A stretch of DNA of 64,000 bases from Vulcanimicrobiota bacterium (GTDB taxonomy: Bacteria > Vulcanimicrobiota > Vulcanimicrobiia > Vulcanimicrobiales > Vulcanimicrobiaceae): positions 416,001 to 480,000 of the forward strand of contig CAWGBN010000008.1 in NCBI GenBank assembly GCA_963820825.1, written 5' to 3'. Both the position numbers and the translations under genes were made by a program. The notes beneath the pieces were generated by a model. The model was not told the origin of the DNA, made no database searches, and saw nothing but the letters and a program-made list of their open reading frames with translations. Positions 21,064 to 40,991 of the stretch are shown here, in pieces. How positions within the stretch are numbered: position 1 is the stretch's first letter; every line of letters starts with the position of its first letter.

Positions 21064-21765
21064 TTACGGGCGGCGGAGTTTGTAGCCGACGCCGTAGACG
21101 GTGACGACGTACGCCGGATTACGGTTGTCGGCTTCGATCTTTTTTCGCAGGTTGTTGATGTGACGGTCGAGCGTCCGTTCGTAGATCGTTCCGGAGTCCT
21201 GCAGACGATCGAGCATTACTGCACGCGTGAAGACTTCGCCGGGGCTGCTCGCCAGCACCGCGAGGATTCGAAACTCGGTTGCGGTGACGTTCGCCGTCCT
21301 TCCGCCGACGCGTATCTCGTGTGAGGCGAGGTCGATCTCCAGGTCGCCGATGCGCACGAGGTTTGCAGCACCAGGCTCCCCAGGCTTGTGCTCCTCGACA
21401 CGCCGCAGCAGCGCGCGAATGCGCGCCATCAACTCGCGCGGCGAGAACGGTTTGGTCATGTAGTCGTCGGCGCCGAGCTCCAGGCCGACGATGCGATCGG
21501 ACTCTTCGCCGCGTGCGGTGAGCATGATCGCCGGGACGCGCCGGCCGCTCGCCGCCGTTTCGCGCAGGACGTCGAGCCCGCTCCCGTCGGGCAAGCCGAC
21601 GTCGAGGATCATCATCTCGGGTTTCGACTCACGAATCAGCGCGAGTCGCCTCGCCACGGTCGTGCAGAGCGTCGTGATGCGAAACCGTCGCGGTCGCAGA
21701 TAGCTCTCGACGACTTCTGCGACTTTCGGCTCGTCCTCGACGACGAGGACGCGCTTGCCGTCCAT
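21064..21765 (-). CDS. OmpR/BaeR-family response regulator (compensating frameshifts near 21650-21695)
   Basis: VLVVEDE, ILDVGLPD, GLELGADDY.TKPFSPREL, RTLDRHINNLRKKIE, TVYGVGY. Confidence 0.92.
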   Translation of the reverse strand: MDGKRVLVVEDEPKVAEVVESYLRPRRFRITTLCTTVARRLALIRESKPEMMILDVGLPDGSGLDVLRETAASGRRVPAIMLTARGEESDRIVGLELGADDYMTKPFSPRELMARIRALLRRVEEHKPGEPGAANLVRIGDLEIDLASHEIRVGGRTANVTATEFRILAVLASSPGEVFTRAVMLDRLQDSGTIYERTLDRHINNLRKKIEADNRNPAYVVTVYGVGYKLRRP

Positions 21766-37882: not shown

Positions 37883-39190
37883 TTAATGTTCCTCGTTTTT
37901 CTGCGTGTCGGCGATCTGCCAGCGCGAACGTAAGCCGAGCCGCCCGAGAATCGAACTGACGTGCCGCTCGACGGTATGTTCGCTGATCTGCAAGGCCACG
38001 GCCACCTCGCGGTTGCGCGCGCCTCGACGAATCAACTGGGCGACCTGCTCCTCACGGCCCGTTAGCGTGGACCCGCTCGGGCGTCCACGCGGGCGCCGCT
38101 CGCCGGCCGGCTCTTGCGCCACGAGCAGCCGCATCGCTTCGTTCGTCCAACGGCGCAGACCCATCGCACTGAATGCTCGCGCGGCATCGCCGGCATCGTC
38201 GATCCAGCCGCCGCGTTCGCCCGATCGCGAAAAGAGATGGGCGCGCGCGAGCAGGTGGTGCGCGTGCAGATAGGGTCGAGCCGGGGCGATGACCGCCGCG
38301 AAAGCCTCGACCGCGAAGCGCGCTTCCTCGATATCGCCGCACTGTGCGGCAGTCGCGAAAAGCTCGACGGCGCTCGCCGCGCTATCTGCTTGGAAGAGCG
38401 CGCGGCGCAAAGCGATCGCGACGGGCGTTGGCGTTCCCGGACCCGGCGTCCGCGACCCGACGAGCACGGCCACCGTTGCCGCGATCGCGGACTCGGACAG
38501 ATCGCAGCGCAGCGCGGTATCGAGCATCCCGGGCGAGGTCCATTCGGGTAGCGCGGCGTCGTCGCCGAGCTCGACGGCAAGTTGCGCGCCCGTCGCTGCA
38601 AAGAGCGCGAGCTCTTCGGGCGAACGAGCGGCTGCGCGACCGCGCGCCACCAGAGCTTCGGCGCGCTCGAGGTCGCCCGCATCGAGCGCGAGCCCGGCCG
38701 CGGCCGCAACCGCGCGCAGCAGCCAACTCTGGAACCCATGCGCTTCGGCCAGGGCGATTGCGTCGTCGATCGACGTGCGCGCAAGGATCACGTCGCCGAA
38801 GAGCAACGCATGCTGCGCCAAACGTTCGCGTGCCGCGACAGCAAGGTGGAAGCGCCGCTGCGCCATCGCGCGGTCGTGGGCGGCCCGCAACGAGTCGAAG
38901 GTGCCGACGGGGCCGGCCGCCCACGCGAGCACGACACCGGCGACGATATGGTCTTCAGGGCTCGGCTCGAGGCTCGTCGCCCCATAGTAAGCAGCGACCT
39001 CGGCACCCGTTCGGCATGCAAGCAAGTCGGCATCGACGAATCGCGCCAGGCCGCGGTCGTCCCCCGCCAGCGCGCAGAGTGCCGCGCGCTCGCGTAGCGG
39101 CGCGCGGGCAAGCGTGAGCTCGGCCGAAGCTTCCCTCAGCCGGCATTGCGCGATTAAGCCGTCGATCTTCTGCTCATCGAAGATCATCAA
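37883..39190 (-). CDS. LuxR-family HTH regulator with helical (TPR-like) N-terminus
   Basis: LTGREEQVA.LI..GARNREVA..L.ISEHTVERHVSSILGRLGLRSR. Confidence 0.85.
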   Translation of the reverse strand: MMIFDEQKIDGLIAQCRLREASAELTLARAPLRERAALCALAGDDRGLARFVDADLLACRTGAEVAAYYGATSLEPSPEDHIVAGVVLAWAAGPVGTFDSLRAAHDRAMAQRRFHLAVAARERLAQHALLFGDVILARTSIDDAIALAEAHGFQSWLLRAVAAAAGLALDAGDLERAEALVARGRAAARSPEELALFAATGAQLAVELGDDAALPEWTSPGMLDTALRCDLSESAIAATVAVLVGSRTPGPGTPTPVAIALRRALFQADSAASAVELFATAAQCGDIEEARFAVEAFAAVIAPARPYLHAHHLLARAHLFSRSGERGGWIDDAGDAARAFSAMGLRRWTNEAMRLLVAQEPAGERRPRGRPSGSTLTGREEQVAQLIRRGARNREVAVALQISEHTVERHVSSILGRLGLRSRWQIADTQKNEEH

Positions 39191-39239
39191 AGCCTAATCT
39201 AGCAAGCGATTCTTAAGTGCCCATTATCCCTTCCGCTAC

Positions 39240-39305
39240 GTCATCCTAAGGACGCGCATCCCGGCGCCCTTCGACTGCTCTCTGCGCTCGCGCTCTGGGT
39301 GACAC
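39240..39305. repeat. REP-like element (GTCATCC...CCTTCGAC...GGGTGACAC)
   Basis: Shares CCTTCGAC and GCTC.GG.TGACAC with 39638-39677. Confidence 0.55.
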
Positions 39306-39363
39306 ATCTAGACGCGCTGCGCCCGGGCGACAAGGAGTTTGAACTGTGTCACGGCCACTACAA

Positions 39364-39393
39364 ACGAGGCGCCGCATTACTGCGACGCCTCGT
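39364..39393 (-). terminator. Probable intrinsic terminator of the minus-strand ncRNA
   Basis: ACGAGGCGTCGCA-GTAA-TGCGGCGCCTCGT, then TTGT. The one non-Watson-Crick pair is G-U only on the minus strand. Confidence 0.6.
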
Positions 39394-39549
39394 GCGTTTC
39401 GATGTGTCGACGACCTGATACGTTGCCGACGATATCACATCTGCAGCGACTTCGCAACGGCTTTGGTCCGTTCCGGCTGGAGCGCCCGGGAATCGAACCC
39501 GGAGCCGATCGGCGTATCAGATCGTCGGTCGACACCATCGAAGCGCCCC
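39394..39549 (-). ncRNA. Structured ncRNA of unresolved class; 39549-39478 folds as a 72-nt tRNA/tmRNA-like domain
   Basis: GGGGCGC/GCGCTCC-A acceptor with G3-U70 and T-arm CCGGG-TTCGATT-CCCGG. The 5' about 40 nt can alternatively pair with 39394-39429. Confidence 0.6.
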
Positions 39550-39591
39550 AGCCCATCTCATTCACGCGGTGAAGACGCAATGACAATGCGA

Positions 39592-39621
39592 CGAAGGCGC
39601 GCTTCGATTAGCGCGCCTTCG
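39592..39621. terminator. Perfect 12-bp hairpin
   Basis: CGAAGGCGCGCT-TCGATT-AGCGCGCCTTCG, downstream of 39687..40925. Confidence 0.5.
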
Positions 39622-39637
39622 CTCAAACGTCGCTCGT

Positions 39638-39677
39638 CCTTCGACACGCGCGCTCCGCGCGCGGCTCAGGATGACAC
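39638..39677. repeat. REP-like element
   Basis: CCTTCGACACGCGCGCTCCGCGCGCGGCTCAGGATGACAC. Confidence 0.55.
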
Positions 39678-39686
39678 ATTTCAGAG

Positions 39687-40925
39687 CTACGGGATCAAGC
39701 GGAAGACCGTGCCGTAGTATTCGGCGGCGCCGCCCCAGAAGGTCGTTCCGTAGAGAACGCCGTTGACGTTTCGCAGACCCGCTTCGGGATTTGCACCGTT
39801 GGGATCGCCGCGGAAGCGATAGACGACGTGTTCGGTTCCGAAGTGGTCGGTGCGGAAGATCGTACCGCAGCGATAGTAGCCGTCCTTGCGAACGGCGCCC
39901 GACGAAATGCATTGGTTGGCCTTATGCGGACTATAACCGCCGCCGGTCGTCGTGCCGTAGAGCTGCCCGTTAACGTTGGAGAGGCCAGCAACGGGATATG
40001 CACCGTCGAGTTTAAAGCCGAAGCTATGGATCACGAGCTCGTGGCCTTGCGGCGTCATCTCGTAGATCGTTCCTCGCTCCTCCTCTCCGCCGCCGCGGGT
40101 CGTTCCGAAAAAGACGCCGTTGTAGTAGAGCAGCGTGCCGTTGGGCCCTTTTCCATCGCCGTTCGTGACCGCAAAACTATGCAGGACCTTCTCTTGACCT
40201 AACGCGTTGATCCGATAGACGCTTCCGCCCGATTCGGTCTTGCCGCCGGCGAGCGTCACGCCGTAAAGCCAGTTGTTGACGCGAACGAGCCCGCCGCCGG
40301 GATGTCCGCCGTCGCTCGGCGCCCCGGCAAAGCTATGGAGCACGGTCTCGTCGCCGGCTGGATCGACGGCAAAGACGATGCCGCGATCGTGTTTGCCGCC
40401 CTGACGCGTCGTGCCGTAGAGAACTCCGTTGACAACGAGCAATCGCGATTCGGGATCGGTGCCGTCGCTCGGTCTGCCGAAGTTGTAAACGACGTGTTCG
40501 CTGTCGCCGGGACTCATCGAGTAGACGGTTCCGCCGCCGTGCACGCCGCCGGCGGAGGTGGTACCGTAGAGCTGCCCGTTGAGTGAGACCAGATCCGCCA
40601 GCGGATACGCGCCGTCGGGCGTTCCGGTAAATTTGTGGACGGTGCGGAACTTGCCAAGCGGGCTGATCGCAAATACCGTGCCGTAGCCGGCGCCGTACGA
40701 CGAAGTCGTTCCGTAGAGCGTGCCTTTGACGTTGACGAGCGAGGCTTGCGGCTCCCCGCCGCTCATCTCGCCTTTAAAGCTGTAAAGCGTTACCAAGTTA
40801 GCACTCTCGGGCGACGTTCGAAACGCCGCGTCGGTAAGCGAGCCACCGGGCAGCGCCCCGCCTCCGGCGATTCGGGAACAGCCAACGATGAGAAGAGAGC
40901 AAGCAATCAATGTAAGAGTGCGCAC
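39687..40925 (-). CDS. Lipoprotein with 'GloVer'-type tandem repeats (LYGTT..GG..G.GTVF), beta-propeller
   Basis: GGAGG RBS, GTG start, lipobox IVGC, about 7 repeats of L/VHSF..DG..P...L....G.LYGTT. Confidence 0.85.
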   Translation of the reverse strand: MRTLTLIACSLLIVGCSRIAGGGALPGGSLTDAAFRTSPESANLVTLYSFKGEMSGGEPQASLVNVKGTLYGTTSSYGAGYGTVFAISPLGKFRTVHKFTGTPDGAYPLADLVSLNGQLYGTTSAGGVHGGGTVYSMSPGDSEHVVYNFGRPSDGTDPESRLLVVNGVLYGTTRQGGKHDRGIVFAVDPAGDETVLHSFAGAPSDGGHPGGGLVRVNNWLYGVTLAGGKTESGGSVYRINALGQEKVLHSFAVTNGDGKGPNGTLLYYNGVFFGTTRGGGEEERGTIYEMTPQGHELVIHSFGFKLDGAYPVAGLSNVNGQLYGTTTGGGYSPHKANQCISSGAVRKDGYYRCGTIFRTDHFGTEHVVYRFRGDPNGANPEAGLRNVNGVLYGTTFWGGAAEYYGTVFRLIP

Positions 40926-40991
40926 GACGACCCTCCGAGTGCCGCAGCGAGGCGGCAAAAACGTTGCTTTCCGTTCTGCGATACGGCTCTC

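Follow-up and report, generated by a model that had tools for sequence, protein, structure and literature searches.

A hitherto undescribed small-RNA module in soil bacteria of the Eremiobacterota: a tRNA-like domain and its putative antisense partner

Can one bacterial RNA be kept by selection both as a tRNA look-alike and as a long rod, and to what class would such an RNA belong? The question is raised by the minus strand of a 64,000-nucleotide stretch of DNA, called the window below (positions 416,001-480,000 of the forward strand of contig CAWGBN010000008.1, assembly GCA_963820825.1), from a Vulcanimicrobiota bacterium of the Vulcanimicrobiaceae with a genome completeness of 85%. A first-pass annotation had marked 39364-39621 as a structured RNA with a tRNA-like alanine acceptor and a competing long-stem fold, and had offered four readings: a tmRNA-like RNA, a Y-like RNA, a 6S-like RNA or a switchable tRNA mimic. 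The locus proves genuine: it is a small-RNA module of soil-dwelling Eremiobacterota that had not been described before (Table 1). The last of the four readings fits; the other three fail, and a predicted internal promoter had been overlooked. The marked interval does hold the module, but its 5' end (39620-39593) is a separate hairpin 3' of the upstream gene; homology to relatives begins only near 39553. The minimum free energy (MFE) of a 301-nt stretch was -149.9 kcal/mol, versus -118.9 ± 5.7 kcal/mol for 100 shuffles, none of which equalled it (z = -5.44).

Table 1 Features of the module in the window
Feature	Position	Strand	Description
P1 -35-like hexamer TTGTCA	39581..39586	-	family consensus cTTGyC
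P1 -10-like GAATGA	39558..39563	-	family consensus G(G/T)GAT(G)GA, 17 nt past -35
Leader GCU	39550..39552	-	predicted P1 start at G 39552
tRNA-like domain	39478..39549	-	72 nt, G1 = 39549, A73 = 39478
Acceptor	39549-39543 with 39485-39479	-	GGGGCGC/GCGCUCC, G3·U70
D arm	39541-39529	-	UCGA-UGGUG-UCGA after single U8
Anticodon-like arm	39528-39505	-	bulged 7-bp stem
T arm	39502-39486	-	CCGGG-UUCGAUU-CCCGG
Trailer GC	39476..39477	-	pairs with leader; acceptor helix becomes 10 bp in primary transcript
Variable linker hairpin H1 (GGAACGG...CCGUUGC)	39454..39474	-	3' strand overlaps P2 -35
P2 -35 hexamer TTGCGA	39452..39457	-	TTGCG invariant, 23/23 copies
P2 extended -10	39429..39437	-	TG 39437-39436, n, TATCGT 39434-39429
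Antisense segment	39398..39423	-	from predicted P2 start, about 39423-39421
Distal helix	39421-39408 with 39527-39514	-	pairs anticodon-like 5' strand and loop
D-region helix	39406-39398 (CACAUCGAA) with 39542-39533	-	pairs D region
Terminator-like hairpin	39360..39392	-	GC-rich 11-bp stem 39392-39365, loop AGUAAU, then UUUGU

The tRNA-like domain and its two pairing partners

The letters of the 72-nt domain match the earlier description of a T arm, a 7-bp acceptor with G3·U70, A73, a short D region and no encoded CCA (GCC directly follows A73), and covariation among homologues supports the cloverleaf. In 91 distinct copies 96.8% of the cloverleaf cells were paired, versus 85.3% in shuffles (0 of 500 reached the observed value). 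The acceptor was 98.6% paired with both-side changes in four of its seven pairs, the T stem was 99.3% paired with such changes in three of five pairs, and the anticodon-like stem had changed on both sides in six of seven. Pair 7:66, for example, is CG in 48 copies, UG in 18, UA in 17 and GC in 6. The search pattern did not include the acceptor; invariance of the T loop in copies L069-L148 follows from the construction of that pattern. G3·U70 is present in 84 of 89 copies, G-C occurring there only once, and A73 in 87.

The domain has the 7-bp acceptor, 5-bp T stem and TΨCRA-type T loop of a canonical tRNA, and its G3·U70 and A73 within a 7-bp acceptor are the features of an AlaRS substrate, found also in nine of eleven units of a sister family (f3). 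It has no 5-bp anticodon stem, 7-nt loop with U33 or fixed anticodon, the best-supported lower stem being seven pairs with a bulge. At the position equivalent to U33, 62 of 89 copies have U and 27 have C, and the 'anticodon' is GAU-like in the window's own family (f1) and GUC-like in f3. ARAGORN reported 39475-39550(-) as 'tRNA-???' with a 4-nt anticodon, and the best-scoring member of the Rfam tRNA clan was tRNA-Sec, whose 24.8 bits fall short of the gathering score, 47. The domain keeps the upper half of a tRNA, including a GG-containing D loop, above a non-decoding lower half of free sequence. Across 86 copies the open reading frames agree neither in frame nor in start or length, and are absent from some; hence no frame is conserved, and a coding role was rejected, as was a tmRNA-like tag whose end would lie in the terminator loop.

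The near-complement reported 3' of the domain is likewise real, although we assign it to 39421-39398 rather than to 39394-39429. The distal helix was 94.7% paired, with both-side changes in all 14 of its pairs (91 copies), and sliding the partner by one to three columns lowered pairing to 31-43%; the D-region helix was 89.5% paired and mostly conserved. The anticodon-like 5' strand thereby covaries with a local and with a distal partner, each fold being supported across the 91 distinct copies. As the two folds share nucleotides they exclude each other, and since compensatory changes in these homologous copies maintain the cloverleaf as well as the long-range helix, the structure lies far beyond chance. 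The same specificity is seen in duplex energies from 49 copies: A with A'' averaged -14.7 kcal/mol for cognate and -7.6 for non-cognate pairs, and A with A' -8.3 versus -5.8. The terminator-like hairpin recognized earlier also holds up, its stem being 97.6% paired with both-side changes in 11 of 11 pairs; its U run is short in the window copy and longer in relatives, and a generic scan did not call it.

A four-strand exchange model, with the M region (the P2 -10 region) pairing with A' and A'', was rejected. Cognate and non-cognate energies were nearly equal (-7.0 versus -6.1 kcal/mol with A', -7.6 versus -6.8 with A'') and the column scan was ambiguous.

Promoter-like motifs, folding path and a proposed switch

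Ahead of the domain, T, T and G stand at -35 to -33 from the C of the CU leader in 57, 56 and 46 of 88 distinct upstream regions, and positions -14 to -7 are G67, G59, G60, A65, T61, G43, G68 and A50 (88 copies). The predicted start is G in 84 of 88. This conservation suggests a promoter, P1. Its -10 element departs from TATAAT and neither element was called by a generic sigma-70 scan; by its letters P1 would be a weak promoter. Leader positions -1, -2 and -3 pair with A73, +1 and +2 in 79, 81 and 88 of 89 copies, and -4 pairs with +3 in only 30; trailer +1 is G in 78 and +2 is C in 81 of the 89. These three pairs, which include U-1 with A73, could hinder RNase P. The helix may also be used unprocessed, in which case alanylation would be impossible.

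About 45 nt 3' of the domain a second promoter, better than P1 and on the same strand, is predicted (P2). TTGnnn, a spacer of 17 nt (76 copies) or 18 nt (9) and TAnnnT were found in 85 of 87 copies, 84 of the 85 having TG ahead of the hexamer. Positions 3-5 of that hexamer are unconstrained in sequence, and in 23 copies TG and TA were invariant with the final T at least 90% conserved. The overlapping hairpin H1, which is predicted by folding the 3' domain one sequence at a time, varies in length and sequence from copy to copy. Since a conserved promoter-like element sits between the complementary parts, a separate antisense RNA is to be expected, and the complement is probably also made in this short form. 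Two promoters and one terminator would give two RNAs, a read-through RNA of ~190 nt and an antisense RNA of ~60 nt. P1 would start ~3 nt ahead of the 72-nt domain and P2 at the first base of the antisense segment, which complements tRNA-like nucleotides 8-38 and is followed by the terminator-like hairpin.

The conserved P2 letters could instead be a motif that acts in the RNA. The locus would then have no internal promoter and make one bistable RNA of ~190 nt, a kinetic switch that forms the cloverleaf first and the rod later. That both folds covary, and that the rod was the full-length MFE fold in all 45 copies evaluated, is as expected of such an RNA; moreover, when the window copy was scanned for generic promoters and terminators, nothing was called (P2 has 8 of 12 hexamer matches there), and P2 was not called in copy L165. 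We think a single bistable RNA, in which TTGCG...TG-n-TAnnnT would mark RNA contacts or a protein-binding site, possible but unlikely. The motif has the form of a promoter, with a -35 hexamer, a spacer constant in length though not in sequence, TG, and T1, A2 and T6 of a -10 hexamer whose interior is free. In f3, TATAAT stands at the identical spacing within different flanks, and the scan of one f3 copy (L171) called TTGCAA-17-TAGAAT and a terminator. Eight of 12 copies that lack the tRNA-like 5' part retain P2, the antisense segment and the terminator, and no covariation links the M region to A' or A''.

The rod lay on average 16.7 kcal/mol below the cloverleaf plus separately folded 3' domain. 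In the growing chain an acceptor-containing fold was the minimum from nt 74-76 in 24 of 26 copies, and the rod became the minimum only from nt 114-158; direct-path barriers were estimated at 14-44 kcal/mol. The reading we favor, with moderate confidence, is that of an alanine-type tRNA mimic which its own antisense RNA, acting either in cis or in trans, would turn off; the module is self-contained and protein-free. In the on state the 5' part of the nascent long RNA would fold as the cloverleaf, which could be recognized by RNase P, 3' processing enzymes, the CCA-adding enzyme and AlaRS. The antisense segment would contact the exposed loop first (UGAUAC with GUAUCA), in cis as part of the read-through RNA or in trans as the P2 RNA. 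Pairing would then spread along the anticodon-like stem and on into the D arm until a duplex of ~30 bp had replaced the cloverleaf, the off state. Should every long RNA read through, the mimic would be mostly self-inhibiting. A GUAUCA-like word lies 6-7 nt past the P2 -10 in 36 of the 55 copies in which the word was located.

In the host, tRNA genes with an encoded CCA stand alongside tRNA genes without one (examples are Ala-UGC, Ile-GAU and Met), and therefore a CCA-adding route must exist; processing of the mimic by 3' cleavage and CCA addition is, on this gene content, predicted to be feasible. Among candidate users of alanyl-tRNA, the genome has an NFACT_N gene, relevant to RqcH-type alanine tailing; FemAB and LPG_synthase_C were not found in the 85% complete assembly.

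The roles could also be reversed. The short antisense RNA or a released 3' trailer might be an effector on mRNAs, with the tRNA-like domain as a sponge or as a processing or stabilizing handle, for which tRNA-linked small RNAs and tRNA 3' external transcribed spacer sponges are precedents. The 3' part resembles a typical small RNA in that a terminator lies behind a single-stranded 5' seed, the words GUAUCA and CACAUCGAA are conserved, and 39366-39445 matched the Hfq-binding RNA isrJ (RF01393) below threshold (30.5 bits against a gathering score of 37, E = 0.0015), which does not place it in that family. However, this 'seed' has a hypervariable middle that changes in step with its own tRNA-like partner alone, which argues against shared mRNA targets because such targets would keep the seed constant. 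Complementary sites elsewhere in the genome were limited to tRNA T-arm matches and matches of 13-16 nt, the best (14-16 nt) being at chance level and none extended, and a mere handle would not need the conserved G3·U70 and A73. We regard an mRNA effector as rather improbable.

Distribution and genomic setting

The window copy is one member of a multicopy family of ~190-nt elements, with up to eight copies per genome and some tandem arrays. By blastn, 29 of 36 genomes of the same genus had matches. A covariance model (R1) found the module in 76 of 151 genomes of the class and 24 of 49 genera, distributed as 72 of 115 genomes in f1, 0 of 3 in a second family (f2) and 3 of 32 in f3; in a sample of the phylum it matched 45 of 71 f1 genomes and none of 70 genomes from 19 other families. 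At the thresholds used, the module was not found in 43 of the 115 family genomes and is therefore dispensable. An exact-motif search of species genomes returned 83 stretches, almost all with titles of Eremiobacterota or Vulcanimicrobiota metagenome-assembled genomes. The module was seen in Eremiobacterota only. A sequencing run (X1) that is labelled transcriptomic but is probably of DNA (share 0.04) contained short contigs of relatives with the conserved parts only.

The sister family f3 has eleven units in ten loci with the same layout and different body sequences. The nine units with an intact G3·U70/A73 domain differ from f1 in D arm and body, ten of the eleven have TTGnnn, 17 nt and TAnnnT, often as a perfect TATAAT, and the duplex of the 5' body with the post-P2 segment was worth -38 to -55 kcal/mol versus -20 to -29 for shuffled sequences. 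The family f3 is an independent replicate of the architecture. A pattern search that allowed one mismatch also matched tRNA-Sec genes (...CTCCCGCC), and only individually inspected matches were used.

In f1, 21 of 30 loci are tail-to-tail with rlmN, which together with a family 4 uracil-DNA glycosylase (UDG) and glyQS makes up the recurrent neighbors. The window copy is not so placed, and the host rlmN on contig C7 has no module copy beside it; we treat the rlmN adjacency as synteny, not as partnership. No neighbor recurred in more than two of the ten f3 loci, and no conserved protein partner was found beside the module in f1 or f3 loci.

Multicopy, patchy occurrence, tandem arrays, truncated copies and copies broken by REP-like insertions are what a decaying tRNA gene or a selfish repeat, such as a mobile-element remnant or DNA-level hairpin without RNA function, would leave. 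Such an origin is scarcely credible given hundreds of compensatory cells in four helices, the terminator's among them, G·U pairs on the transcribed strand, promoter- and terminator-like signals conserved in a single orientation, and an architecture kept across two bacterial families despite the difference in sequence. No transposase or integrase recurs beside the module. A phage origin was rejected, a search of viral contigs having given 0 matches.

Relation to known RNAs and possible role

The tRNA-like properties of tmRNA are described in PMC3985003 and PMC3929946. The module shares with tmRNA (SsrA) a GGGG start, G3·U70 and A73, a canonical T arm, a GGU-UCGAC-like D region and a non-decoding lower half. 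It differs in having a real 4-bp D stem, a closed anticodon-like hairpin and multiple copies, and in lacking a tag frame with resume codon, pseudoknots and an encoded CCA. We know of no antisense partner of tmRNA. The host has a standard tmRNA elsewhere in the genome (112.8 bits) and a single SmpB gene.

Bacterial Y RNAs (YrlA/Yrn1) are, like the module, non-coding RNAs that join a tRNA-mimicking module to a long stem, and both have a T arm. According to PMC4201824, YrlA of M. smegmatis is cut by RNase P and has CCA added to it; by the definition given there, the word and arm order of a Y RNA are absent from the module, whose arms follow the unpermuted tRNA order and whose usual word is UUGCGAAG, which we read as a -35 box (GCCGAAUG occurs only in copy L016). 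A TROVE/Ro60 gene (PF05731) neither adjoins the module nor was found in the 85% complete genome. The ~190-nt rod recalls 6S RNA, but the module does not match the 6S model, a rod with a central open-promoter-like bubble, and a separate full-length 6S candidate, below threshold (34.5 bits), lies on another contig (G000:C6:255454-255638). No Rfam family reached its gathering score in the window, and within 39100-39900, at E up to 10, only the T arm of permuted tmRNA appeared (12.9 bits), with no 6S or Y match. A divergent or degenerate tmRNA, Y RNA or 6S RNA is thus very improbable.

Closer likenesses are found in RNA pairs. In hok/sok and AapA1/IsoA1 mRNAs, a metastable 5' fold forms during transcription and gives way to stabler long-range 5'-3' pairing; in both types of locus one strand covaries with two partners, the antisense RNA has the stronger promoter, tandem and orphan copies occur and the pairing region diverges fast. 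The module shares the two-stage fold as predicted, the dual covariation, a putative antisense RNA with a predicted stronger promoter, the tandem and orphan copies and the fast divergence of the pairing region. It differs from type I toxin-antitoxin systems in having no toxin peptide, in that its antisense gene is an inverted repeat on the same strand rather than an overlap on the opposite strand, and in that the object regulated would be a tRNA mimic. In type VIII pairs (SdsR/RyeA, CreT/CreA) both partners are RNA and one acts on the tRNA pool; the module has no Cascade or crRNA-like component, and its candidate toxin would itself be the tRNA mimic. In ColE1 RNA I/RNA II a cloverleaf-like RNA meets its complement through loops and pairing redirects the partner's fold, but there both strands of a single stretch are transcribed and the RNAs govern plasmid replication, whereas the module RNAs would be same-strand, chromosomal and without a replicon.

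The allo-tRNAs and tRNAOther of soil bacteria are, according to PMC5389517, non-canonical chargeable cloverleaves, some of them with alanine identity, that may have no part in translation and were suggested to be regulatory RNAs or linked to toxin-antitoxin loci. Allo-tRNAs combine 8/4 or 9/3 acceptor/T branches with real anticodon arms; the module has a 7/5 branch, a lower stem of 7 bp with a bulge, and an antisense segment cognate to it. In the literature and Rfam, subscription journals being outside our coverage, we found neither a tRNA mimic with a linked antisense RNA nor a paper joining Eremiobacterota with a tRNA-like RNA.

What the mimic would do is a matter for speculation. It might be one half of an RNA-RNA addiction or defence cassette, a tentative proposal to which we give a low likelihood. 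In such a cassette the alanine-charged mimic would poison or reprogram a tRNA-dependent step (translation, RqcH-type alanine tailing or tRNA processing), the antisense RNA from the stronger promoter would hold it in check, and the hypervariable stem would separate up to eight orthogonal specificities per genome. As a side observation, the cognate-specific pairing, orphan antisense copies (those 8 of 12) and a predicted stronger antisense promoter are features that a putative RNA-RNA toxin-antitoxin pair could have.

To our knowledge non-coding tRNA mimicry in bacteria comprises few classes, chiefly tmRNA and some Y RNAs. To these the module adds a third class, distinct in structure and from a phylum that has barely been cultured. 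The evidence for selection on both exclusive folds is unusually clean, with one strand and two covarying partners in ~90 copies from two bacterial families. It raises the questions of whether alanine-charged, non-decoding tRNA mimics are used outside trans-translation, of co-transcriptional folding as a timer and of toxin-antitoxin-like modules made of RNA only. Were the addiction cassette true, this would be the first toxin-antitoxin-like system with a tRNA look-alike as its 'toxin'. The hypervariable, self-matched stem is a natural set of orthogonal RNA-RNA pairs.

The RNA unit in the window and its neighbors

On re-reading, the tRNA-like sequence that the first-pass annotation had reported on the minus strand was confirmed, and the near-complement and terminator-like hairpin that it placed downstream are also present, the latter as an 11-bp GC hairpin followed by UUUGU. 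The RNA stretch folds much better than its own shuffles (z = -5.44). The interval first proposed also took in a 10-bp hairpin downstream of the stop codon of the upstream gene, which is no part of the RNA family. For the protein of that gene no Pfam match was found. On each side of the RNA gene stands a REP-like element (GUGUCAUCCUGAGC...GUCGAAGGAC type), and a similar element interrupts the copy of the tRNA-like domain at another locus (L028).

Coordinates of the RNA unit and of other features mentioned in the text (in the window unless a genome or locus is named)
Feature	Position	Strand	Remarks
tRNA-like domain	39549-39478	minus	GGGGCGC-U-UCGA-UGGUG-UCGA-C-(24-nt hairpin)-CU-CCGGG-UUCGAUU-CCCGG-GCGCUCC-A
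P2, -35	39457-39452	minus	TTGCGA; 17-nt spacer
P2, extended -10	39437-39429	minus	TG-a-TATCGT
Antisense segment	39421-39398	minus	complementary to 39542-39514
Word upstream of P1	39612-39600		weaker form
Hairpin after stop codon	39620-39593		outside the RNA family
Upstream gene	39687-40958	minus	423 aa; six GloVer tandem repeats (TIGR03803, 228 bits)
REP-like element	39677-39636	minus	39636-39677 covered by many unrelated contigs of run X1 (labeled transcriptomic, probably DNA)
REP-like element	39305-39266	minus	
tRNA-Gly(CCC) call	21553-21642	plus	ARAGORN, 90 nt; atypical start/end (CGCCGTTTCGCG...AATCAGCGC)
6S candidate (L182)	G000:C6:255454-255638	plus	own genome; full-length; 34.5 bits versus gathering score 46.4, E = 2.7e-5
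NFACT_N protein gene	G000:C5:30253-30753	minus	own genome; RqcH/NEMF-like, 78.7 bits
Deletion derivative	L050 2683-2650		same place as L013 2683-2650

Infernal searches gave no Rfam family at its gathering score in the whole 64 kb, and thus no standard family above cut-off at the RNA unit. Relaxed thresholds gave isrJ over the 3' part of the unit (30.5 bits versus a gathering score of 37), tRNA-Sec (24.8 versus 47), mascRNA (22.2 versus 42.5) and, for permuted tmRNA, a sub-cut-off match of 17 nt in the T arm (12.9 bits). ARAGORN reported the domain as 'tRNA-???' with a 4-nt anticodon. Three classes raised in the first-pass annotation were discarded. A tmRNA-like RNA was rejected because the units share no reading frame and the genome has a standard tmRNA elsewhere (112.8 bits) plus one SmpB gene. 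The Y-like option fell because a search of the genome, which is 85% complete, turned up no TROVE gene, the arms stand in unpermuted order and the YrlA motif occurs in one copy only. A 6S-like RNA was dismissed because there is no 6S match at the unit and a separate candidate lies elsewhere in the genome.

No protein gene was found to travel with the RNA. Even rlmN, which stands tail-to-tail with it at 21 of 30 loci of the window's family (RlmN 371 bits versus a cut-off of 290), is absent beside the window's copy and in the sister family. In the window's family (L041-L061) this tail-to-tail position is the chief syntenic location of RNA arrays, with a gene for a family 4 uracil-DNA glycosylase before rlmN and, at some loci, one for glycine-tRNA ligase on the far side. 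RlmN also methylates A37 of tRNAs; nothing in these data points to a functional link with the RNA.

Distribution of the family

The unit occurs once in its own genome. By blastn, 29 of 36 same-genus genomes matched, always from about 39553 to about 39362, and several held multiple copies. Apparent 'tRNA-only' matches were really divergent full-length units; 5'-truncated and insertion-broken copies were also found among relatives. A covariance model (R1), built after alignment of 23 full-length units of 184-201 nt (A1), matched 76 of 151 genomes of the class, including 72 of 115 in the window's family (24 of 49 genera, at most 8 copies per genome) and, weakly, 3 of 32 in the sister family, with none of 3 in another family; 'not found' means below the thresholds used, and the tallies take in an unpublished genome (G153), the sequence of which was not used. 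In a sample of the phylum, 45 of 71 genomes of the window's family matched, as did 0 of 70 from 19 other families. An exact two-block motif gave 83 stretches in the species-genome collection. The titles shown were nearly all Eremiobacterota/Vulcanimicrobiota MAGs or 'bacterium' bins (the named MAGs were Ca. Cybelea, Ca. Aquilonibacter, Baltobacteraceae and Vulcanimicrobiaceae), and the four that name other phyla were all short contigs from automated bins. Viral contigs gave no motif matches, which leaves a phage-borne origin unsupported. Units also occur in tandem, repeating about every 310-320 bp, and the stretches between them contain no reading frames (e.g. L050). At L050 a deletion derivative has the acceptor 5' strand almost abutting the T arm and acceptor 3' strand, and is minihelix-like, without the predicted antisense-binding region. 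No earlier publication of the family was found in Rfam 15 or in the literature searched, outside subscription journals.

Covariation of two folds and conservation of the layout

Pairing was counted in an alignment of 91 distinct rows to R1 (A3). As R1 was built on the long fold, these counts lean to that fold, and cloverleaf counts from the same alignment gain nothing. Cloverleaf cells were 96.8% paired versus 85.3% in shuffles (0 of 500 reached it), although such controls overstate significance because the copies are related. Slid partners, which like the cross-family replicate are free of this problem, gave 39-47%. Pairs changed on both sides numbered 4 of 7 in the acceptor (98.6% paired), 6 of 7 in the anticodon-like stem (90.0%), 3 of 5 in the T stem (99.3%) and 11 of 11 in the terminator (97.6%); the D stem was invariant, with no changed pairs (100%). 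In the long fold, the helix between the distal antisense segment and the anticodon-like 5' strand plus loop had all 14 pairs changed on both sides (94.7% paired), and the adjoining helix of the D region with CACAUCGAA was 89.5% paired and conserved, without covariation. A smaller hand-made alignment gave the same picture. In an alignment-free test of 49 copies, the 5' strand paired with its own distal segment at -14.7 kcal/mol versus -7.6 with those of other copies, and with its own local 3' strand at -8.3 versus -5.8. One set of columns has two pairing partners, and the distal helix runs across the acceptor stem. A duplex of about 30 bp with nucleotides 8-47 in one strand is incompatible with nucleotides 7 and 49 stacked in an acceptor/T minihelix; hence, from geometry, the folds should exclude each other, as the first-pass annotation had proposed for its long stem, and both folds covary.

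Prompted by the weak match in the sister family, we inspected eleven of its units, at ten loci in ten genomes. In nine the domain is intact (GGGG(G/A)...), with G3·U70 and with GCC next after A73. The D arm (e.g. CCGC-UGGU-GCGG) and the lower stem and loop (CUGUCAC-like) differ from those of the window's family, and the leader is GGUU, which pairs with AGCC. TTGnnn, 17 nt and TAnnnT, often a perfect TATAAT, occur in ten of the eleven; one spacer is 19 nt. For these nine, pairing of nucleotides 8-45 with the 60 nt past the hexamer comes to -38 to -55 kcal/mol, versus -20 to -29 (± about 4) for shuffled tails. At L171 a generic scan reports a terminator plus TTGCAA-17-TAGAAT, against a chance expectation of 0.1 promoter-like sites; at L165 it reports a terminator only. 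The same layout in different letters is the strongest argument that selection keeps layout, not sequence. Two of these units (L165 and L169) have an extra GC-rich hairpin between A73 and P2; such a loop (e.g. ACCACAGGUCUGA) is complementary to the anticodon-like arm of its own unit and therefore could make a second, kissing-loop contact.

Two promoter-like elements accompany the folds. The region upstream of 88 distinct copies has a conserved TTG (57/56/46 of 88), a gap of 17 nt, G(G/T)GAT(G)GA, a gap of 6 nt and the G (84 of 88) that opens the GCU leader; this element, P1, would be a promoter with a poor -10. The linker carries a better motif, P2, in which TTGCG, TG and TA are all invariant and a T five bases later nearly so. 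Of 87 copies, 85 show its pattern of TTGnnn, spacer and TAnnnT, the spacer being 17 nt long in 76 and 18 nt in 9; the extended -10 TG occurs in 84 of the 85, and hexamer positions 3-5 vary freely. The antisense segment opens with a GUAUCA-like word, located in 55 copies; in 36 of these it lies 6-7 nt past the hexamer, so a P2 transcript would be about 60 nt, starting with the antisense and ending at the shared terminator. P2, antisense segment and terminator are kept in 8 of 12 units lacking the 5' part. A generic scan of the window called neither element (P2 has 8 of 12 hexamer matches). From these sequence patterns we infer that both are used as promoters. In about 13 of the 37 upstream regions listed, a further conserved word, CGCGGATTAA(N)CGAACG or CGGACGAGTCGAAC, precedes the P1 -35, some 45-75 nt before P1 (L040, L050, L051, L054, L058, L041, L053, L059 and others); it may be either a site for a regulator or the terminus of another element.

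Alanine marks and a proposed switch

The identity set for AlaRS consists of G3·U70 plus A73. Of 89 distinct copies, 84 retain G3·U70 (G-C once) and 87 retain A73, in keeping with the alanine-type acceptor first read in the window; the acceptor was not part of the search pattern behind most copies. Pair 7:66 is CG in 48, UG in 18, UA in 17 and GC in 6. Hence, as read from its sequence, the upper half of the domain carries alanine marks. The GCU leader pairs across A73 and the trailer (U-1:A73 in 79 of 89, C-2:+1 G in 81, G-3:+2 C in 88), with the next position at chance level (30 of 89), and the primary transcript would therefore have a 10-bp helix. ARAGORN made 47 calls in the genome, with tRNA genes both having and lacking encoded CCA, so CCA addition must exist in the organism. 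The bodies of its three tRNA-Ala genes differ from the tRNA-like domain. The 90-nt tRNA-Gly(CCC) call in the window looks doubtful because a normal 74-nt tRNA-Gly(CCC) is found elsewhere in the genome. The genome encodes an NFACT_N protein, of a family that performs alanine tailing with tRNA-Ala in other bacteria, and this protein is a conceivable user of an Ala-charged mimic.

The minimum-energy full-length structure was the rod in all 45 copies evaluated (7 of 52 were skipped, being missed by the T-loop expression), with an energy 5.6-36.7 kcal/mol (mean 16.7) lower than that of the cloverleaf and 3' domains folded apart. In growing chains the acceptor-stem fold was the minimum from nucleotides 74-76 in 24 of 26 copies, and long-range pairing took over only at nucleotides 114-158. 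A direct-path heuristic put the barrier between the states at 14-44 kcal/mol, a value that sets a ceiling; strand displacement that begins at the loop could proceed much faster.

The RNA thus has a tRNA-shaped 5' domain with alanine marks and a cognate complementary segment, with selection on both pairings, and a promoter-like box stands just before the complement, which shares its terminator. Of the options in the first-pass annotation, a switchable tRNA mimic fits selection on both pairings, with switching itself the proposed step. The 5' domain would fold first and become accessible to enzymes that recognize the upper half of tRNAs. Its complement, supplied by the same chain as it grows or by a separate P2 RNA, would nucleate on the exposed loop and unzip the lower half and D arm, with loss of the L-shape; the duplex of about 30 bp would in addition be a target for enzymes of the RNase III type. 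The hypervariable stem with a matched partner in every unit, the predicted stronger antisense promoter (P2), the orphan antisense copies, the patchy occurrence and the tandem duplication of units are all likenesses to antisense-controlled toxin-antitoxin loci.
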